A DNA stretch of 63,014 bases, counting the filler, from Reclinomonas americana ATCC 50394 (Eukaryota): NCBI GenBank assembly GCA_048213135.1. It is 5 parts of 2 records of this genome, joined end to end, with 100 filler letters (N's around TTAATTAATTAA, not from the genome) between each part and the next. Parts side by side here need not be neighbours in the genome. Positions count along the whole stretch, not along the records: positions 1 to 19,655 come from PS015209.1; 4 more parts are not named here. One strand, given 5' to 3'. The notes beneath the pieces were generated by a model that did no database searches, was not told the DNA's origin, and saw only the letters and a list, made by a program, of their open reading frames with translations. Positions within the stretch are counted from its first letter, which is position 1. Each line of letters opens with the position of its first letter. Below are positions 190-56,560 of the stretch, piece after piece. Both the position numbers and the translations under genes were made by a program.

Positions 190-3100
190 TTCTCGTATCG
201 AGATGGCAGAGGCGATGCTCCGGCACTTGCGTCATTGGAAAGATCTGCATCAGCATCTCCACAAGCTCGGCCATATGCTTGTTTTCGTCACCGCCTGCTG
301 GATCGGGTGGCACAGTCTGGTTGGCATGGGAGACAGAATAGAAGGATGAAAGGAGGAAAGAAAGAGGGACAGAGAGGCCAATGGGCAGGCAGAGAGATGA
401 AGCATTTTGTATATGAGCGCAGGAGAGAGAGAGAGAAACGCCTGTCTCGCTTGTTACACGATGGAGATCCCACTTAAGACAGGAGGAGAGAAAGAGAGCG
501 AGACAGACAGGCAAGCATGTAGAGAAACACTTGTCTCGCTTGTCGCATGACAGAGATCTGCCCAAGAAGAAAGGAGAAAGAAAGAAAGAGAGAACGAGAG
601 ACAGGCAGGCAGACACGATTGCAGGAAAGACACGGACAGAGAATCACGTGTCTCGTTTATGACATGACAGAGATCCGCGCAAGAAGAAAAGAAAAAAAGA
701 GAAACAGACAAGCAAGCATGCAGAAGAAGAAGCAGGCCTGTGTATACAAATGCAGGAGAGAGAGAGAGAGAGAGACACCTGTCTCGTTTGTTGCAGGACA
801 GAGATCCGCCCACGAAAAGGAAGAGAGGAAGACAGAAAGAGAGACAGGCAGGCAGACACGATTGCAGGTAGACACGGACAGAGGATCACGTGTCTCTTAT
901 GACATGACGGTGATAAGAAAGAAAGAAAGGAAGATAGAGTGTGTGTGAGAGAGAGAGAGGCAGGAACACGGAAAGCACTCTTGTGCATGTGAGCACCAGA
1001 GAGAGAAAAACACCTTCTCTCTCTTTTGCAACACGGAGACAGATATCGAGAGGGAACACTTGTCTGTTGCCAGACGGAGATCCGCCGAAGTAAGAAGGAA
1101 GAAAGAGAGAGTGAGAGAGAGACAGGCAGACGGTGAGAAAGTGCACTCTGGTGCTGATGTGGGAGAGAGAAAAAACACCTGCTGTCTCGTTTGTTGCGCG
1201 ACGGAGATCCAAAGAATGACAGGAGGAGAGTACGAGAGCGACAGGCAAGCATGCAGAGAAGCAGGCTTGTGGAGAAACACTTGTCTCGTTTGTTGCAAGA
1301 CGGACAAGAAAAGGAAGAGAGGAAGAAAGAAAGAGAGACAGGCAGCCAGACGCGATTGCTGGAAAGAGACGGACAGAGAATCATGTGTCTCGTTTATGAC
1401 ATGACGGTGATAAGAAAGAAAGAAAGGAAGATAGAGTGAGAGAGAGAGAGGCAGGAACAGGGAAAGCACTCTTGTGCATGTGAGCACCAGAGAGAAAAAA
1501 CACCTGCTGTCTCGTTTGTTGCGCGACGGAGATCCAAAGAATGACAGCAGGAGAGTACGAGAGCGACAGGCAAGCATGCAGAGAAGCAAGCTTGTGGAGA
1601 AACACTTGTCTCGTTTGTTGCAAGACGGACAAAGGAAGAAAGAAAGAGAGACAGGCAGCCAGACGCGATTGCAGGAAAGAGACGGACAGAGAATCATGTG
1701 TCTCGTTTGTTACACGACGGAGATCCGCTCAAGAAAGAAAGGAGGAGTAAAAGAGAGAGANNNNNNNNNNNNNNNNNNNNGAGAGAGAGAGAGAGACAGC
1801 AAGCAGGCTGAGAGAAGGCACTCTTGTGCATACGTATACAGCACAGAAGAGAAAGAGACACACTTTGCCTCGTTTGCAACACGACGGAGATCCGCCCGAT
1901 ATCCGTACTCCGAACACGACACCACGACAAAGCCTCTCTCTCTCACTCTCACAGGCCACCGCTCCCACAATGCACAACAACACACTGCAACACCCACGCA
2001 CACAAGCTACAACAACACACGCCTTCACTTATAATACAACAAAAACAACAACAACGAAAAAACACACACACATGCATACGCAGACACACGCTCTCACAAA
2101 CAAGAGCACGCTGCTTCTTTTTCCACACCAGCAAGTCATCACACACTTCAAAGCGCAAGAAGCATGCACACCGAGGCACACTTCAAAAAACGCTACACAC
2201 ACNNNNNNNNNNNNNNNNNNNNNNNNNNNNNNNNNNNNNNNNNNNNNNNNNNNNNNNNNNNNNNNNNNNNNNNNNNNNNNNNNNNNNNNNNNNNNNNNNN
2301 NNNNNNNNNNNNNNNNNNNNNNNNNNNNNNNNNNNNNNNNNNNNNNNNNNNNNNNNNNNNNNNNNNNNNNNNNNNNNNNNNNNNNNNNNNNNNNNNNNNN
2401 NNNNNNNNNNNNNNNNNNNNNNNNNNNNNNNNNNNNNNNNNNNNNNNNNNNNNNNNNNNNNNNNNNNNNNNNNNNNNNNNNNNNNNNNNNNNNNNNNNNN
2501 NNNNNNNNNNNNNNNNNNNNNNNNNNNNACAAAGGATGCTTGCAAGATCGTCACAGTGTTCATCGCCCGCTGAAGCTCGGCCCTGTGCATGTGTGAAGAG
2601 AGAGACGCACACACAGAGAGAGAGAAAGTGGCCAGTGAGTGACTGAAAAAACCAGTGAAATGAGACACACAGACATGACAATGAAGAATATGGCAAGTGG
2701 TGATGCATGCACAAGAGAAGACAGTGTGTGTGTGTGCAAGTGTGTGTGCAGTGTGTGCGTGTGTGTGTGCACTAGTGGGGGTCGAAATGGCGGCCACTTC
2801 TCGCACTCTTTCTGTTTGTGTTTGTTTGTGTGTGTACGCAACAGAGGCGCTGGAGTGGGCGGAAGAAGGAGGGTGGTGAGGAGGGGGAGGTGGAGGGCGA
2901 GTAGGCGTGGTGTTGTATGGGTGAGTCGGCGCCACCAATGACGGTCATGGGTTGTGTGGCGGGGAGGCGACGGGAGGTGGTTTGCAGGTCGAGGACTTCG
3001 GTGGGGGAGGGATAATCATCCATGGTGGAGGGGGAGGGAGAAGGGCGAGAAAACGGGGGGGGGGGGCCACGCGTGCGAAGACAGAGTGATTGAAAACGGG

Positions 3101-3230
3101 CTTGCGTACGGTCCTGCATGCTGTTGTCGTTTATTGGAAGGTGTTGATGGCGTCTGTGGATGCTCTGTGCGTGCTGTTGTGGTGCAGCGCGCTGGGAATG
3201 GGTTTCCTTCTTTTGTTGTGGTGTTGTTCA
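190..3230 (-). CDS. Possible hypothetical multi-exon gene hosting the repeat array
   Basis: Coding-looking segments at ~2930-3230, ~1868-1935 (SEYGYRADLRRVANE) and ~230-316 (TVPPDPAGGDENKHMAELVEMLMQ, after a pyrimidine tract and CAG). No recognisable family. Confidence 0.25.
430..1900. repeat. Degenerate tandem repeat array (~100-120 nt units) in AG-rich, probably intronic sequence
   Basis: The core TGTCTCGTTTGTTGC...ACGGAGATCC recurs more than a dozen times, with GACAGGCAGGCAGACACGATTGCAGG-type spacers. A larger block at ~1170-1395 is repeated at ~1495-1705. Confidence 0.9.
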
Positions 3231-3506
3231 TGTCGACGTCGACGTTGAAATCAAACAAACAACAAATTCAAACAAGCGACAGCAAGCTGCTGTCTTGATG
3301 CAAGTCCTATCCGAACCATCAACATGAACGCAAGTCTTGAGGGCAGCGGGAGGATATCATGTGTGTGTGCGCGCGCGCTCTCGGAGCTTCGAACAATTGC
3401 AAGCCGACAACGCCCTCATCAAAGGTTTCACAGAGCCAAGACACAGCTGTTGCTAATCTATGTTGCTGAACCACACGACTACGTATTCCCGACAGCATGC
3501 ACGTCT

Positions 3507-6500
3507 TTACCAGGCGGTTCCAGATCCCGCACTCACTCTCCCTGAGAATTCCCCGGCATCCGTCGTCAGCCCCGCTCCGCATGTCAGTACAGCGTCGTCC
3601 GCACCTCCGACCGTTGCTACTGCATCGGGCACCGTTCTCCGCGCTGGTGCCTCACACAGGCGCTTGAGTTCATCGTGTACGTACGATGCCGACACACGTG
3701 TTGCTTGCGGCCTCTGTATCGTATACGTACACACAAAATAAGAATGCCGGCTTGTCCCCCCTCCCATGGCGTAGCACGCAACCCAGCACTGCCGAATGAG
3801 ATTCCGAATGTCCGGCGAAACGGTCGCTCGCACTTCGTCATCGTCAAGATTGCCAGGCAAGACACCTTCATGCATGCAGCGCATGATGACCGGCAGAGAC
3901 ACACCACAAAATGGTTCCCTGCGTGTGGCGATGAGCCAGAGCAGAGAACCGAGTCCATACACATCGGCTCTCTCGTCGTACTGTGAACGGCGCAGCAATT
4001 GTGAGCGAATCGCACACTGCAAGAGATGCCAACCGCACGCGCACCTCGGGACCCAACATGGCTTCCGGTGCAGCGTACGCCGCCGTGCCGTGGTTCGATT
4101 GCATTTTCCCGAGCGTACCGTGGATTCTGGCCTCCCCAAAATCGCACACCTTTGCAACAAGTCGGTCCTCGCTGATGAGAATATCTGTCGACAGATGAAA
4201 GGTCATGATCAGTTGGTGGTCCATATTCGCTCACCTGTTCCACTCTCAGCTTTTACGTGCGTGGTGTGGTCTGCCTCACTCACTGTTAGCCAATTTCTCA
4301 ACGACGTAACTCTGTGGCTTGAGATCGCGATGTACCACTCGACGACAGTGCACATGAATCACTGCCGACGCCACTTGTACAAGCAACTTGAGCAACTGTT
4401 GCGTCGGCACACGGCCATCCTTTACCAGGTCGTGCAGCGTCTCTGCATTTCCCTGCGCTTTCTCTTGACCGATGTATTCGAGGACGAGACCAAGTCCGCT
4501 CGGGTCGTCATTGCACACGGCCATGAGTTTCACAATGTGCGGGTGACTGTGTGCAGAAGCAATAAGTGCCAACAATCACATAGCAACACAGCGGAGTGCT
4601 CACAAAGAAACACGCAACTCGAGCTGCATCAGCAACGAGTGTTCGTTCTCGAAGCTCTTGCAAACGCGGTCCCAGTCATCTGCGTTCCTAACCAAGTACC
4701 GCTTGTACGCCACGGTCTGCAATACACCGCCAAGACAGAGAGTGGCTCGAAAGACAGCATTTTGTCCTGTACATGTGATGAGATGAGCACCATGGTATCA
4801 ACTCGTTGTACAGCCGAGAGCAGTCTCACTGGCGCACACCGATGGCAAGCTGCCTCGAGGTCGCCAAGTCAGAGAAAGGCACAACGGGGGCGCGGATTTT
4901 GAATCTGGCCACCTTCTCCTTCAGCATCTCAGCCGTCACGTTGATGCGACTCACGGCTGTGCGGAGAAATGAGAAACGCAGAACCAGACTTACCAGTACA
5001 TGTGCGTGAGTGCTGCGATCGCAACTGTCGTATGATTGAAAGAGAAGACGGATGCATTCGTGTCCGTCGGGGAATAGAGTGTGGAGCGAATCGCGGACCA
5101 AACGCATGACGCTGACATACTCGGCGTCTTCGAGGGCAGAGAGCCGAGCAAGATGAGATACGCGGTGACGCACATCTCTCAAGTTCTTCACGGCTCGGAT
5201 CTGCACGGTAGAGCACTCAGTGTAATGTACACCATAACGTAGAGAGTGCCAACAAGCAAACCTTTGCCGGGTTGGCGAGGAGATGCACAGCACATCGATC
5301 TTGATTCGCGCCGGGGTCGAAACGAACAAGGCTATCCTCCAAATCTTCATCTCGACAATCGGCGGCGCACACAAAAGTGGTGTACAGCAGCAGAGTACTG
5401 AGAAGCGAGACATCCATGCCCGTCGTCACACCAGTCCTCTTGAATGCGCGAACTGCTTCATAGTTGGAAGGATACAGGTTGGCTGAGCGCATGGAAAAAT
5501 TGCCATGCTTGTCACGAGTCATTCGACAATATCTACCAGACGTGGTGATGGATGAGATGCGATGACCAGGAGGCAGCACATAGAAGACAGCGAATCCGCT
5601 CTTTTTCCAAACCTCGGCGGTGGAACCGGGCGGCAGAGTTGCTCAATGTCGAATTCACCAGGGAAGTAACCAGCAATGAGTTGTTCCAGCAGAGAGCCAA
5701 GTGCTAACGGAATGACCTCGTGCACGACTTCGGTGAGCATCAGGATCGGACGGCGGTCACTGTGCATTTGGCCAAAGAGTGAGGCGAGTCACTAAAGCAC
5801 TAACGGCGACCATGGGTTAGAAGAAACCTGAGAAAGTCCATATGGAAGAGTGCGCGCAGCTGATCTTTCGCCTCATCAGCCTTGCGTCGCAATTCCTCGC
5901 ACTCAGCAGCGGCTGCAACAAGCTGCGCACGGAGGGCACTGCATTCCGCGGTGGGGACGTCAGCAGCGAAACCGGCTGCGGCAGATGCCAATTCGAGTCT
6001 GAGCTGATTACGATCGGCGACTAGCGCGTCGGCAGCACGCTGTGCGGCGGCCAAGTCTTCTGAAAGCTGGTGGCGATCTGCTGCGATTGCCTTCACTGTA
6101 GCTCGAGCAGCAGCAAGATCTGCAGTAAGTTGCTGGCGCTCCGCTGCCATGGTCATGACGGCGGCTTGAGCAGCAGCGAGGTTCTCAGCGAGTCGGTCGC
6201 GCTCCGCCGTGACAGTACTGATAATGCTGGTTGACTTGTCGACTGCAGCAGGCGAACATCGAAAGCAAATGAGGCACGCATGTGCAAGCGAGAGCAAAAA
6301 TTAGACTTAACACGACAGGAAGAGACAAGCGCGCACTGAATGCGATGAGCGAGAAGGGAAGCATACGGACCTTGCGCGATCGCAAGGCGGAGATCTTGAC
6401 GCAGCTGAGCAACAAGTTGGTCTCTTTCCTCCAGTTGCCGGTTGACGGCGAACCGAAAGTCGTCCTTCTCGCGCAGAGCTGCAGTAAGCTGAGAGGCGAA

Positions 6501-7602
6501 TACGTCTCGTTCAGCCTGCAGTTTCGAGTCAGATCGCTGCCATTCCGAGTTGACCAGTTGGAGTTGGGTGTTGCTATGCTGCAGCGCTCGTTGTAGTTGT
6601 TCCACGATATCTTCTTGTTCTTGTCGCTGATAGTCAGACTGCCACTGCTGTTGCTCTCGCTCGTGCTGTGCCGCAGCCAGTTCTTTCTGAGCTGCAGCCA
6701 GATCGCGCTGATATTGAGTGAGCTGTCGTATCACGGCATCGTCATCAAAAGGCTGCACAAGATGCGCGAGTGAATGCGAGGCTTCCAAATGCAGACATGC
6801 GAGGGATGATGAGAGTAACAAACTTGCTCACCTGACGTGATGCGGCTGCACGATTCCCCCGAGTAAGAAGAGCAAAAATAACGGCAATGTGAGTGGAGTC
6901 AAAAACATGGCTCGAAGCATAGAGCTCACACCTTGCGGCGATCGTGGTACCGGTGGTTGCGCCGAGACGTAGTCCAGTAGTTCGGCCACCGGCTTCTTAC
7001 CGACGCCACGGGCCCACTGAGCCGCCGTTTCTCCGCCTTTCTTGGTCTTCGGAATGAGGTCGGGGAAGCGAATCGCGAGAAGGAGAGCAATGGCCTCTTC
7101 GCCGTTGACTGCAGCGGTGTGCAACGCAGTGGACTGGGGATTGTCGTCACGGTCGTTGGTTACCGCCCGCACCGTCTCCGGTGGACATCGTCGCTCGTCG
7201 GCGAGCAACCACAGCACAACTTGCAGCCTCCCATTCTCGGCAGCAGTCATAAGCGGCGTCCAGCCGGTATCGCTGACCAGCTGTGCCAGTTGCGGCCCCA
7301 CGCCACTCTCCTCCCACAGATACGTCAGCACAGAGAGATGGCTTCGGTAGGCGGCAATGTGAAAGGCCGAAATGCCAGACGCATTCCTCTCTTCTCTCTG
7401 CAGCAGAGTGCGTGCACCCTCATGCGCCACCAACACTCGCAGTGCCTTGACGTCGCCATCCCACGCCATCTCCCATGCTTTCTTCCTCTGCGGTGCCAGT
7501 GGAGCACTCGCACTGCGCATCAACGCACACACAACATGACAGACAATATAAGCGCGCGAGAGAGTGTGAGAAGAATGCGACTCTTTTAACAACGCACCTC
7601 AT
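3507..7602 (-). CDS. Ankyrin repeat - coiled coil - HEPN(DZIP3-like) - TKL-type protein kinase, multi-exon
   Basis: First coding exon is 5 nt (ATGAG, 7602-7598). ANK repeats (GWTPLMTAAENGRLQVV, TALHTAAVNG) at ~6930-7510; 14-nt micro-exon; coiled coil ~5850-6750. HEPN-like motifs LYP...MDVSLLSTLL...IRAVKNLRDVRHRVSH at ~5030-5760. Kinase motifs VAYK, HPHIVKL, HRDLKPQN, DFG, GTAAYAAPE, DVYGLG, CW. Frame is kept across all inferred GT-AG introns; stop at 3507. Confidence 0.85.
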
Positions 7603-7854
7603 GTTGAAGAAGAACTTGCTTTTAACACACCACACTTCAGCGCGCGCTCTCCGAACCGCTTTCGTTTCCAGTGCCGTGTCGTCCTGTTTCGTTGTCGGGT
7701 TGTCATGACGGACACTGTGACAACTTCAATGATAGATATGCGGCTGCCGTCTGTCAGCAGAGAGCCGGGAAGGTCGGTAAGCTCTCAGTTTCTTCTCTCT
7801 TTCTTTGTCTCTGTGGCAGCTTCCTGTTGACGTCGTAAAACTCAACAAATTCAT

Positions 7855-10336
7855 TTAATCAACAGGCAAATTAATGTGCCCACAAGATTTTCGCACCTTG
7901 CACATAACATCGTGCACCTCCTGTGCCGTCGGCCGCTCGTGACGCATGGTCATGCACCGCATGGCGAGTTCAAACATGGGAACGGCGATGGACGGAGTCC
8001 ACTCGACGCCGCCGTCCTCGTCAACGAGCAGCATTGGGTGCAACGCGGCAGGCGAATCGTCCCACTTCACCGACCACTCCATCACAGCGCACACAGGTTT
8101 GCCGGTGACCAGTTGCGCCAGCACCACGCCTATGCTATACACATCGTGCCTGGGCAGCGGACGACGCTCGCGAAGTGCCATCGGGTCCATATAATTAAGG
8201 GATCCAGCAGCCGCGGTTGACTGGCAACGCAAACGAGTGAAAAAGGGTGAAACAAGGGGAAAAGACGAAAGGCACAAACCCGAGCATCTGCAATATTAAT
8301 CGATCGTGCAATGCCAAAGTCACCGAGGCAAGGCTCGAAACGGTGATCGAGAAGCACGTTGGACGGCTTAATGTCGCGATGCACCACATCGTTCTTCGAT
8401 GGAGGTGTATATATGCGGTTAGTCGAGGTCACCGAAGCAACGCATTCAGAAGCGCACACGCTGCACACCTTGTGTAAGAACGCCACAGCCTCGGACAGTC
8501 CGAGTGCAATTTGCACACGCTGCACAACAGAAAGCGGGGTGCGACCAGAGCTCGGAAGCAGCAACATATCGTCCAGGTTGGGAACTCTTCATGAATGTGA
8601 GAACTGACGGTCAGCGCGATCACTGACGATGGTGGAGAAAGGGCATTGTGTGGGTGGTTACGCACTCCAGGGCCTTGTAAACGAGGCAGCGCGCCCCGTC
8701 GTCGCCTTCAGCATAGCCGACAAGAGGGACGATGTGACGGTTACGCAGGCGGCCGAGGATGGCGACCTGCAAAAGAAACGAAATGCGTGTGAGTCGTAGA
8801 AAAAACAGTACAGGGAGCGAGGATGGTGACAGACTTCGGATCTGAATGAATCCATCGTCCACGGTGCAGCCGTGTCGAGCACCTTGATGGCCACATAGGC
8901 TTCGCGAAGATAGCACATGAAAACAGCTCCTTGGCCACCTTCGCCGACCTTGAGGCGTGGCGAGAAGCAATTGGTGGCGTGCACGATCTCCGGCCATTCG
9001 AAGCATTGCACTACAGTGTCCGCTGTCGAACAGTTAGATGATCGGAGTGAACAGCAGTTCGAAGGACAATACGCACAGCAACTCGCTGATGAGACTTGCC
9101 TTGCGCGGGGGCGAGCCTATGAGCAACTGAGACCTTGTTTTGCAGCTGGGCAGCGAGGGCTTCCTTGTCGCGAAGAGCCTCGGCTAGTTGAGACGTGAGC
9201 TTCTCACACTCGGCGTCTCGCTCCTTAGCGGCTTGCTGCCATCGCGAGACAAGCATCTGGAGCTGGATGTTGCTCTTTAAGAGCTCCTCATTAGATCCCT
9301 GCAGCTGGGCCACGATGTCTTCATGTTCTTCTTGCTGCAATTCCCATGCGTGGCGCTGTAGCTCCCGCGCCTGTTTCGCTGCGAGAATATCGCTCTGCAG
9401 TTGGGCAATGAGCGCGTCCTTGTCTATGACGTAGCGCGCACCGGGAACGTAGTCGAAGCCAGGCGGCACCACCTTTCCAAAGTCGACACCAAGGTTAGAC
9501 GAAAACAAAAAAACACCTGAGACGAACTTGTCAAAGCCTCACCTGACGAGGTTGCACTGCGTGTTACAGAGCACAGGGACCCAGGAACACGTAAGCAAGA
9601 GACACACGAGTTGACTTGGCCTCGACAATCCTATCGCACCTGCTGCCACCAACGGTGGAGGTACCTGCGGTGCCGGTTGCGGTTGTGGCGGTCGTTCGTG
9701 TACACGTGGCGGCTGCGCAGCGAGGCGGTCGAGCAACTCGGCCACTTGCTGCTTGCCCTCGTCACGTGCCCACTGAGCCGCCGTCTTGCCGTCCGAGTCG
9801 ACCATGGGAATGAGGTCGGGAGAGCGAGTGGCGAGGAGCTGCACAATGGCTTCGTGCCCTTTTTCGGCCGCCCAATGCAATGCAGTGGCGCGGTTGTTGG
9901 CCACCGCCCGCACCATCTCCGGTGGGCATCGCCGTGCATCGGCAAACAGCCACTCCACCACTTGCAGCCGCCCATTGTAGGCGGCAGCCATTAGCGGGGT
10001 CCAGCCATCTTTCGTGACAATCTTCGCGAGTTGCTGACAGATATCACTCTCGCCCCACAGCACCTCCAACACAGTGAGGTGGCCATCGCACGCGGCACAA
10101 TAGTACGCCGACCGCCCACCCGACGTCATCTCCTCCTTCTTCAGCAGCATGTGCGCACCCTCACGCACCACCAGCTTGCGAAGCGCCTTCGCGTCACCAT
10201 CTCCTGCCATCTCATGTGCCTTTTTCCTCTCTTGCTGAGGAGCGGCACTGCTGGCAACGAATGAAATCAATAAGATAGACAACCACTTCTCACGCCAACG
10301 TGAGTCTGACAACAACGCATCATGAACGCACATCAT
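7855..10336 (-). CDS. Ankyrin repeat - coiled coil - IRAK/RLK-Pelle-like kinase, paralogue of the adjacent gene
   Basis: Same 5-nt first exon, ANK exon and 14-nt micro-exon as the neighbour. Kinase reads FEWPEIVHATNCFSPRLKVGEGGQGAVF, VAIKVL, HIVPLVGYA, CLVY, RVQIALG, HRDIKPSNVLLD, GDFGIAR, GSLNYMDP, DVYSIGVVL, ERP. Confidence 0.87.
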
Positions 10337-11419
10337 GTTTTCTCGGTCACGAGACCACGCGCGTGAGCAGCGCGCAGTTTGCCACTCCACGCGCACACTT
10401 GTCGCAAATGAATGAATCTCTGTCAAATCCGCGAACGGGCGACACTGACAGGATACTTGATCGGACACATGACGGGGCTTGGTAGTGGCGTGCGACGTCA
10501 ATCAACGTCGTGATTGGTCATGGGAGAGAGAAAGAGAGGGGAGAGGGAGAACGAGCAAGGGGATTAGTGCACACAGCGTTGCCGGAGAGACTGATGCACT
10601 CACGCTGTCGAGGCGATCTGCAGCCGGAGACAGACACAGATGGAGGCTATACCACAGTCCACCAAGCGCCTACACCGTCGTGTAACAGCAATTCAAGACA
10701 AGTCGAACTGGAGAACGCGGCGTTGAAGATGAGACTTTTTCGAGCACACGCCGAGAAAGTTCGTGCACTCAGGAGCGCGATGGTGACGTTCAAAAGCTCA
10801 ATGAGTCGACTGATTGTGCACTTAGCCAGCGTGACCAAATCAGCATGCAGATTGATCCGGACCTCATTGCATCACTCAATCGACTGGTGGTTCCTCTTCA
10901 CACACCTCACCACCATCGAGAGTTCACCAACAGCCCGGCAATACGCTGCGTGCGGGCTGGTGTGGGTTCAATGGATAGCCGCCGCTGCAGAGCAGCGCCC
11001 CCGCGTCACGATGCGCTTACTCCTGGCATGCTGATGGCAAGGCGGTGCAAGAGCGGAGTCTGAGAATTNNNNNNNNNNNNNNNNNNNNNNNNNNNNNNNN
11101 NATTTTGGCAGGTGTTCCGTCACGCACAAACGTGTGTGCTGCTCTGCGCCCGTTCGCACGCTTTGTGCCGCCGTCGCCATGGTCACCGGTGCCAGGTGTC
11201 TGGGGTCGCTTACAGATCGGCTTTCAGCAGCGGCTGTTCATGTCAGCAACTGGTGTGTGTGTGTGTGTGTGCACGTGTGTGTGTGTACATTGACATTATC
11301 TGACAAGTTCCTCTCGCCATCAGCATCTGTCACAGATTCGAGTGAATGTGAGCGCGACCTTTTCCGTGCTGTCGCTGGACTGTGATGTCTCACCGCTGGC
11401 GTGTCATTATTGCCTTGCA

Positions 11420-41176: not shown

Positions 41177-41320
41177 GAAGAAGAAGAAGAAGAGTAGTAG
41201 AGAAAGACGACGAGACGAGAGAGGAGAGAGAGAGAGAGAGAGAGACGACGACGAGAGAGGAGGAGGAGACGACGACNNNNNNNNNNNNNNNNNNNNNNNN
41301 NNNNNNNNNNNNNNNNNNNN

Positions 41321-41332
41321 TTAATTAATTAA
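41321..41332. other. Artificial scaffold linker
   Basis: TTAATTAATTAA flanked by Ns. Confidence 0.97.
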
Positions 41333-41376
41333 NNNNNNNNNNNNNNNNNNNNNNNNNNNNNNNNNNNNNNNNNNNN

Positions 41377-46069: not shown

Positions 46070-46730
46070 GAGAGAAAAAAGATCCACAGCAAGTGGCACG
46101 CCCCGCTCTGTCTGCGCCTGCCTATTCGCATCCTTTCTTCTGTTTTCCTCTCCTCCTCCTCCTCTTCCTCCATTGCATACGCACTCGAACAGTTGTTGTC
46201 ACTGGCAGCGACTCAATCATTGAAGTGCGAAGTGCTTGCTGGCATGCATCTGCTTCCCAGGAGGCATCGTGCGAAGGCGAAAGAACGTTCACAACTATTC
46301 GAGCATGCTCTTCTCCGACACCGCAAGCCGGGCCCAGCGAATGCATGGACTGCGGGTCAATAACATAAGTGTTGAAGCGCCGCGGCAGAGCGTCCAGGAC
46401 CCGACCTGCATGGACACTTGTCGCATCTGATCATGAAAGGCCGACGCAGATATCGAAGTTGTCCTGCGTCCAAAAAAATCGTCACCACGCGCGCTTCCTT
46501 TTAATACCTACTTCCAGCGCAGAGTCTGTGCACACCGTATTCATCGCTGCACGCGTGGTTACGGGGCTTGTACGTGAGAATCAGTCGGACAATTGCGTCC
46601 CACCACCGACTCCCGACGTCGCCCAGCAGTTTACAGTGCAAAGTCGCGCAATCATGGCGACGATGCTGGGGTTCGTCTCTTCTCCTNNNNNNNNNNNNNN
46701 NNNNNNNNNNNNNNNNNNNNNNNNNNNNNN

Positions 46731-46742
46731 TTAATTAATTAA
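46731..46742. other. Artificial scaffold linker
   Basis: TTAATTAATTAA flanked by Ns. Confidence 0.97.
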
Positions 46743-46786
46743 NNNNNNNNNNNNNNNNNNNNNNNNNNNNNNNNNNNNNNNNNNNN

Positions 46787-56079: not shown

Positions 56080-56408
56080 AGCGTGTCTGTGGGATGTGGG
56101 AGTGTGGGGTGTGCGTGTGTGTGTGTCGCAACTAATCTTCCGCGACTCTGCGAGGGTAAGAGAGGGAGAAAAACAGATGGGGAATTGTGGGTGCCCTTGA
56201 TTCTCTTTCAGTAGTGTGGTGGTGGTAGTGGTGGTGGATGGCTCTTGCAGAGAGATGTAACCTGTGTGGTGTTTCCGTTTTTTGTCTTGAGAAAACCAAA
56301 TGTATGCAAAACAAGGAGATTTCGTTACATTTTTGTTTCTTGTGTATACGTCATTGGTGATTATNNNNNNNNNNNNNNNNNNNNNNNNNNNNNNNNNNNN
56401 NNNNNNNN

Positions 56409-56420
56409 TTAATTAATTAA
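56409..56420. other. Artificial scaffold linker
   Basis: TTAATTAATTAA flanked by Ns. Confidence 0.97.
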
Positions 56421-56560
56421 NNNNNNNNNNNNNNNNNNNNNNNNNNNNNNNNNNNNNNNNNNNNAATACAGGGGAGCTCTGAAATGCACACGGGAGCAGA
56501 TGAGGATACCAATGGAGAGCAATGTGACTTGCAAAGGGAAAAAACAACAACGCACCGTCA

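Follow-up and report, generated by a model that had tools for sequence, protein, structure and literature searches.

A tyrosine at the gatekeeper position is a hallmark of the IRAK/RLK kinases, and RNase L and IRE1 combine a kinase-like domain with a KEN/HEPN RNase. In plant kinases of the PUB33 type the domains follow the order USP, long helical domain, kinase and U-box; a coiled-coil homodimer of PUB33 is predicted, and the protein self-associates in the yeast two-hybrid assay (bioRxiv 10.64898/2026.02.10.704836). For Phytophthora infestans, a stramenopile, PMC3019232 describes five kinases of the IRAK class, four of them with a transmembrane domain and all five predicted to be inactive, ankyrin repeats occurring on other TKLs of the same organism. 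An IRAK4-type kinase is listed for the last eukaryotic common ancestor (bioRxiv 10.1101/2020.01.27.920793). Two adjacent genes, called here A and B, in a stretch of 63,014 nucleotides (nt) from Reclinomonas americana ATCC 50394 (assembly GCA_048213135.1; the whole stretch is hereafter the window) share features with several of these systems. Both genes open with ankyrin (ANK) repeats and a coiled coil, and differ in what follows. The explanation that best accounts for both genes jointly, and that we regard as probable, is that the product of A is a soluble IRAK/RLK-Pelle-type kinase, and that B is a chimera, generated by partial tandem duplication and by a join at a phase-1 intron.

Coordinates refer to the whole window, in which A and B lie head-to-tail on the minus strand. 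The interval 2529-11068 is free of N runs, so that both genes reside on uninterrupted sequence; the window as a whole contains 26 N runs (7,079 bases in total), and has a GC content of 56% when N are excluded. Gene A (10336-7855) is made up by 9 exons, which are spliced in frame to encode 629 amino acids, with introns of 58-83 nt. Gene B (7602-3507) is made up by 13 exons, also spliced in frame, encoding 1039 amino acids, with introns of 57-128 nt, all of the GT-AG type. Both are predicted gene models, in which every junction is based on reading frame, on splice signals and on what has been conserved from one paralogue to the other. Their parts are listed below, a slash marking splice sites.

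10332..10336, minus strand: gene A exon 1, ATGAT, which is the start codon and two further nt, with the donor GTGCGT behind it; assigned by frame and as a block conserved in B
9640..10250, minus strand: gene A exon 2, ankyrin repeats (about 5 by eye) and a Pro/Gln-rich linker; assigned by Pfam
9543..9556, minus strand: gene A exon 3, a 14-nt micro-exon with entry phase 1 and exit phase 0; assigned by frame
9100..9472, minus strand: gene A exon 4, long helix/coiled coil, ending GCGCAAG/ in phase 1; AlphaFold2 and alignments
9023..9099, minus strand: gene A intron 4, 77 nt, GC-AG, AAG/GCAAGT ... GACAG/; the A-B homology stops here
9022-8835, 8766-8666, 8586-8469, 8393-8280 and 8220-7855, minus strand: gene A exons 5-9, kinase of IRAK/RLK-Pelle type; Pfam and PDB matches
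7603..7854, minus strand: spacer of 252 nt from the stop codon of A to the ATG of B; by coordinates
7602-7598, 7512-6932, 6845-6832 and 6752-6371, minus strand: gene B exons 1-4, namely the ATG exon, the ANK exon, the micro-exon and the coiled-coil exon; paralogous to A
5828..6242, minus strand: gene B exon 5, a B-specific extension of the coiled coil with about 4-5 tandem repeats of 21 amino acids; BLOSUM autocorrelation
5759-5613, 5532-5262 and 5200-4840, minus strand: gene B exons 6-8, helical region with an RHRVSH motif, candidate HEPN domain; language-model leads
4766-4604, 4546-4311, 4184-4045, 3980-3783 and 3713-3507, minus strand: gene B exons 9-13, a second, unrelated kinase with a degenerate glycine loop; Pfam and PDB

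A (TG)n microsatellite is found at 11250-11290 on the plus strand, just upstream of the gene A region.

Exons 1-4 are common to A and B. All four intron positions agree in place and phase, the entry phases of exons 2 to 5 being 2, 1, 0 and 1 in both genes, and the encoded front halves are 47% identical over 349 aligned residues (E 2e-81). The first exon is 5 nt long in each gene (ATGAT in A, ATGAG in B). The ANK exons measure 611 nt in A and 581 nt in B, are 61% identical at the amino acid level, and are both recognized by Pfam (Ank_2 2.2e-21 and Ank 5.7e-17 in A, Ank_2 2.9e-17 in B). With two copies this far apart, saturation of the synonymous sites is to be expected. The coiled-coil exons, of 373 and 382 nt, both carry GCGCAAG at the 3' end. 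In the AlphaFold2 model, residues 18-120 of the 124 encoded by exon 4 of A form a single, 103-residue helix (mean predicted local distance difference test score 89.0), which fits a coiled coil; this exon aligns with exon 4 of B, as with the coiled-coil region of an algal protein described below. The alignment of the front halves stops at LAPAQ/AD in A versus LAIAQ/VD in B, 1-2 residues beyond the boundary of exon 4. The end of the homology thus coincides with the phase-1 donor GCGCAAG/, which is followed by GTCCGT in B. The first-pass annotation had proposed that the neighbours have the 5-nt ATG exon, the ANK exon, the 14-nt micro-exon and the start of the coiled coil in common, and diverge behind the same GCG CAA G/ donor; both proposals are confirmed by the alignment and by the four matching introns.

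Two islands are conserved inside introns that have otherwise diverged. One is AACATGA[T/G]GTGCGTT, conserved at 14 of 15 nt, the other CGTCAGGTGAG, in which 11 of 11 nt are identical between A and B. They are what would be left of a start codon with its donor, and of a micro-exon end with its donor, and support the 5-nt exon and the micro-exon. Other arrangements of this region can be drawn. Intron 1 of A (81 nt) is open in frame from the same ATG, and unspliced read-through is possible; B may start from an alternative ATG at 7520. In both genes the micro-exon may be skipped by use of a GTACC[T/A] donor, which gives a single intron of 192 nt in A and 198 nt in B, exceeding in length every other intron of the two genes.

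Past the breakpoint, the similarity between A and B is that of a generic kinase match only (29% over 210 amino acids, E 4e-13 by BLASTP; 24.7% over 267 columns of a MAFFT alignment). A tblastn search of the window with A revealed no further match beyond gene B. The kinase introns of A are located after FRSE, within KALE, after FLHK and after ADAR, those of B in the glycine loop, before HPHIV, within HRDLKPQN, after LGPE and after QCW. By eye, none of the four positions in A coincides with any of the five in B, counting those that lie inside the kinase regions or at their borders. The lack of coincidence among the kinase introns compared, set against four out of four in the front halves, is the main argument for a separate origin of the two tails, as opposed to mere divergence of a gene duplicated in full.

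The kinase of A is recognized by Pfam (Pkinase 1.3e-08 in exon 8, 1.1e-07 in exon 9), and carries the catalytic motifs GEGGQG (residue 361), VAIK (378), HRDIKPSN (475) and DFG (495); it is of the RD type. The stop codon TAA (7857-7855) is found directly behind the kinase. The first-pass annotation had assigned this domain to the IRAK/RLK-Pelle kinases, and both the best PDB matches and the motifs speak for the assignment. The exons of A were searched against all PDB chain sequences. Exon 9 matched 34 sequences at E<=0.01, namely 26 IRAK4, 7 plant RLK/RLCK (an LRR kinase, BIK1, four FERONIA and a LysM kinase) and one bacterial kinase, PknB. Exon 5 matched 35 sequences at E<=1, of which only the first 7 reach E<=0.01; the 35 are IRAK1, 26 IRAK4, 7 plant RLK/RLCK (LYK3, three CERK1, another LysM kinase, a lectin kinase and BIK1) and one bacterial kinase, YabT. 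Among these 34 and 35 matches there is no RIPK, LRRK, MLK, RAF, LIMK or tyrosine kinase. The lead-in F..EI..ATN.F...GEGG.G.V is present in A; the corresponding segment, FEWPEIVHATNCF, aligns to LYK3, IRAK1 and CERK1, and to PUB, IRAK1 and RLK kinases. The LVY at residues 425-427 aligns with the LVY of IRAK1, PUB33, LRR-RLK, PERK1 and the Chrysoparadoxa protein described below, and the C-lobe motif (L/V)D..G..W(P/T) is common to A, PUB kinases and the same algal protein. No death domain was found in A by Pfam, nor any hydrophobic segment, by eye, in the 629-residue model. The lack of a death domain and of receptor parts makes A an RLCK-like protein rather than a receptor.

Exon 9 of A, searched exhaustively with HMMER against 1.84 billion representatives, gave 145 matches (best E 4e-13), the top 10 named ones being all from streptophytes. 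A kinase domain was found by Pfam in 136 of the 145, a U-box in at least 6, ankyrin repeats in at least 3. When the spliced kinase of A was scored against the same 145 proteins, the best ten ranged from 136 to 119 bits, with plant U-box kinases and Closterium proteins at 136-120 bits, followed by the Chrysoparadoxa protein at 119 bits. The relatives looked up, nine of these ten (P0137 was omitted) plus the metagenome protein P0215, comprise U-box kinases from Hevea, Eleusine and Ipomoea (PUB33), a Corymbia protein, three from Closterium, and one each from Spirogloea, Chrysoparadoxa and an unnamed metagenome source. Turtle IRAK1, scored with the added proteins, gave 111 bits. A word-index protein search with the 62-residue N-lobe exon returned 3 candidates, none of which gave a score.

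Of the phylogenetic check suggested in the first-pass annotation, the part with IRAK/RLK kinases was run with IQ-TREE on 35 kinase domains and 302 columns, with bootstrap values not fully settled. The tree included A, B, two ochrophyte proteins, PUB, Closterium, Spirogloea, PERK, SERK-like, RKF3 and lectin kinases, turtle IRAK1, a death-domain protein, unnamed matches and one ANK-TPR kinase; no RIPK, LRRK, MLK, RAF, LISK or STKR sequence was among them. In this set of IRAK1, RLKs and RLCKs, A comes out in an unresolved basal polytomy. Thus, the membership of kinase A in the IRAK/RLK-Pelle type is supported by best hits and motifs, not by the tree.

The closest described proteins are found in ochrophyte algae. 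Chrysoparadoxa australica CAM9101020.1 (P0162; 590 amino acids) features ankyrin repeats, a coiled coil, a kinase and a RING finger, and aligns collinearly with A over a stretch that begins midway through exon 4 and takes in the whole kinase (33% identity over 377 amino acids, E 4e-38). The chains among the best 60 PDB sequences matched by its kinase include BAK1 (1.4e-40), Pto, SYMRK, IRAK4 (1e-34) and FERONIA, and no other kinase family. The 'receptor protein kinase-like protein' of Tribonema minus (P0263; 613 amino acids) has the same domains (ANK, kinase, RING). As A, both algal proteins combine ankyrin repeats, a helical or coiled-coil segment and an IRAK/RLK-type kinase in one polypeptide; unlike A, which stops after the kinase, they have a C-terminal C3HC4 RING. 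No RING was detected near A either by tblastn with the two algal proteins or by Pfam.

Plant PUB-VI/RLCK-IXb kinases (PUB33 type) gave the top full-domain scores to the kinase of A. They share with A, where a helix is predicted, a long helical domain directly before the kinase, and judging from these sequences this unit would be an old one. They differ from A in the flanking domains, USP in front and U-box behind in the plant proteins, ankyrin repeats in front and nothing behind in A, in which neither a U-box nor a USP domain was matched by Pfam. Animal IRAK1, IRAK4 and Pelle provide the best PDB matches of the N-lobe and C-lobe exons of A, with the LVY gatekeeper in common; A is 35% identical to turtle IRAK1. 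Unlike IRAK and Pelle, A has no death domain, and a link to the Toll/IL-1 pathway cannot be inferred. The P. infestans IRAK-class kinases are, by their published description, IRAK-like kinases outside plants and animals, as is A. A differs from them in the lack, by eye, of a transmembrane segment, and in having kept the catalytic motifs.

A word-index search with the ANK exon retrieved generic ankyrin proteins only (23-46% identity), the protein of the window itself not being among them. Metagenomes were scanned with the A/B ankyrin alignment. No relative was found in a first run, and a second scan yielded 79 loci with generic ankyrin repeats (<=39% identity), none with the full module. A word search of open-access text did not return any ANK-coiled-coil-IRAK-like kinase or such a tandem pair, which is no proof of absence. 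The JGI metagenome protein P0215 (982 amino acids) carries numerous ankyrin repeats ahead of a kinase that is one of the relatives of A and that, in the tree, lies in the same unresolved polytomy. Ankyrin-headed kinases of the type of A thus exist in uncultured organisms as well.

The tail of gene B is of a different making. Exon 5 encodes 138 residues, in which the unit A[ED]R.QL..[DE]LAAA..., three heptads each, is repeated in tandem. The autocorrelation of the protein peaks at offset 21, with a score reached in none of 2000 shuffles; the repeats were not picked up at the DNA level by Tandem Repeats Finder. The junction between exons 6 and 7, one among 44 possibilities, is the least certain part of the model. 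A HEPN domain, as proposed in the first-pass annotation, may reside in exons 6-8. An RHRVSH motif is seen here by eye, HEPN domains being recognized by a four-helix fold and the motif R-x4-6-H, and the Atlas language-model neighbours of the helical region are HEPN_DZIP3, DUF4559 and HEPN_Swt1, at 0.80-0.87. These values are under the 0.9 mark, and are leads only. Exon 7 gave no lead in Atlas, Pfam found no HEPN in gene B at E<=1, and Foldseek, run with a half-domain model of exon 8 (pLDDT 69.5), found no match at E<=0.001. The HEPN domain of B is therefore a weak lead. Should the helical region be a HEPN, B would have the domain set of RNase L (ankyrin, HEPN, kinase), from which it differs because the candidate HEPN precedes the kinase, and because of the long coiled coil.

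The kinase of B is recognized by Pfam (Pkinase 7.7e-13). The PDB matches vary from exon to exon. AMPK, CDK6, EGFR, NEK7 and JAK1 are matched by one exon, with no IRAK/RLK among the best 60, RAD53 by another, and TAK1, MLKL, IGF1R, RIPK1, CTR1 and PknB by the C-lobe exon. The earlier classification of this domain as a TKL kinase is supported for the C-lobe, in which it appears TKL/TK-like, and not for the exons that match AMPK, CDK6 and RAD53. In the alignment with A, the kinase of B has L instead of Y at the gatekeeper, and lacks both the ATN lead-in and (L/V)D..G..W(P/T). An open frame of 375 codons (3775-4902, plus strand) runs antisense to the kinase exons of B, and is probably a by-product of the GC-rich coding sequence opposite.

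What the sequence and the helix prediction show of A is its domain order, its intact catalytic motifs and the long helix. The product of A would be a soluble, plant-RLCK-like kinase, with about five ankyrin repeats, a helix of about 100 residues and an RD-type kinase domain. Most likely, as suggested by PUB33, the long helix pairs two molecules, which would lead to mutual phosphorylation of the kinases; the ankyrin repeats, by analogy, would bind a partner or a ligand. An old tandem duplication would have covered only the promoter-proximal exons 1-4. In the phase-1 intron that follows the coiled-coil exon, the copied exons would then have been fused to other downstream sequence, through which B would have acquired the repeat-built coiled coil, the helical region (maybe a HEPN) and the unrelated kinase. 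A would be the older form, in which the RING was lost or never present, and B the chimera. A is probably the older because the order ANK, coiled coil, IRAK-like kinase, with the RING in addition, is also found in stramenopile algae. The exon shuffling at a phase-1 intron invoked in the first-pass annotation is in line with the position of the break and with the separate origins of the kinases; A itself is probably ancestral and not freshly shuffled, its domain order being known in stramenopiles.

The locus may be read without any swap. A full ANK-coiled-coil-kinase gene would have been duplicated. In copy B, the additional coiled coil and the helical region would be a later insertion, and the kinase would have changed so far that its kinship can no longer be recognized. 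Both genes do end with a protein kinase, and the 29% identity of the two kinases (210 amino acids, E 4e-13) is little under the 31-37% that A shares with its best relatives in the databases. We consider this unlikely, as none of the compared kinase introns coincide, while all four do in the front half; the PDB matches differ, IRAK/RLK for A, AMPK, CDK6, RAD53, TAK1, MLKL and IGF1R for B; and B has L at the gatekeeper and no ATN lead-in. There is an equally small chance that some other TKL family (e.g., RIPK-, LRRK- or an organism-specific clade) is the true home of kinase A, which would then be a divergent member merely resembling IRAK/RLK. This would agree with the long branch of A, which has no supported place in a tree made without the other TKL families, and with an identity not exceeding 37% to anything known. 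Yet PDB is rich in RIPK, LRRK2, MLK, RAF and LIMK chains, and none is found among the 34 and 35 matches of the two exons of A, or among the kinase chains in the best 60 matches of the Chrysoparadoxa protein; the lead-in motif and the LVY position also fit IRAK/RLK. Very unlikely, in our view, is an artefact of the gene model, in which separate transcripts of A would carry the ANK-coiled-coil exons and the kinase exons, and no fused protein would be made. The joining intron is a predicted one and requires a non-canonical GC donor, and the frame of exon 4, if unspliced, continues for about 30 codons to a stop (open frame 9011-9538). A separate kinase gene would be startless, because the frame upstream of the kinase (8658-9116) has no ATG before the glycine loop. 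Moreover, AAG/GCAAGT is at the exact position of the GT donor of B, and the two algal proteins carry the same domain order in one polypeptide.

Several observations weigh against the explanation favoured here, a soluble IRAK/RLK-Pelle-type kinase in A and a chimera in B. All the splicing of A and B, breakpoint included, is predicted. The breakpoint donor of A is GC (AAG/GCAAGT), not GT, and GT alternatives exist: at intron 4 of A there are 37 in-frame GT/GC-AG alternatives, including GT donors at 9207 (intron of 185 nt) and 9072 (50 nt). The GC donor was preferred because it sits in the same place as the GT donor of B and gives a 77-nt intron. The kinase of A has DPM at the APE/DPE position, and is very divergent, no relative of exon 9 being above approximately 53% identity over the matched stretches, with a best E of 4e-13. 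In the tree, made without other TKL families, the branch of A is long (1.58) and arises from the unresolved basal polytomy that also holds IRAK1, PUB kinases and RLKs. The two ochrophyte proteins pair with values of 100/100 and then join plant RLKs (91/92), and A is not placed with them; a clade of A with the two is not rejected by the approximately unbiased test (log-likelihood 4.45 lower, p 0.196). Membership of A in the IRAK/RLK-Pelle type, as opposed to other TKL families, is argued from best hits only. The direction of the change, with A probably older, is based on two annotated proteins and on 33% identity, and the dimerization and ligand binding of A are analogies.

Hetero-oligomers of A and B, proposed in the first-pass annotation, are a guess, and its comparison of the pair with paired immune receptors is speculative. 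A complex prediction made with the two coiled-coil exons gave a score of 0.00, and is uninformative either way, the controls having not been run. Highly improbable is the more ambitious idea that the pair works as a module with two arms, used by the protist in defence or stress. A shared ankyrin-coiled-coil platform would sense one cue, and mixed oligomers would unite an IRAK-like kinase arm (A) with an RNase L-like arm (B: ankyrin, HEPN RNase, kinase). If true, a single sensor of a unicellular eukaryote would serve both the IRAK-type and the RNase L-type branches of innate immunity.

What the locus contributes is an ankyrin-headed, soluble and apparently active kinase of IRAK/RLK-Pelle type, from a lineage hardly covered by the protein databases searched. 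Through the unit formed by the long helix and the kinase, A is tied to the plant U-box kinases and to the ochrophyte ANK-kinase-RING proteins. The pair is a clean natural case of a front module that comes to serve a second catalytic tail by way of an intron of matching phase. Genes have here been remodelled at an intron; as a system the pair is of no new kind, and by itself it opens no new question. IRAK-like kinases of stramenopiles (PMC3019232) and an IRAK4-type kinase of the last eukaryotic common ancestor (bioRxiv 10.1101/2020.01.27.920793) are already in print.

Outside the two genes, four identical joints, each formed by 44 N, TTAATTAATTAA and 44 N, are found at 19656-19755, 41277-41376, 46687-46786 and 56365-56464, none of them in 2529-11068. 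The joints are six-frame stop linkers for stringing contigs into pseudo-scaffolds, and the neighbourhood across them may be arbitrary. When 24 long gap-free frames of the window were scanned with Pfam, the only other match was in the open frame 18805-19650 (plus strand), which matches solute carrier family 35 / EamA-type transporters (SLC35F, 6.5e-10).

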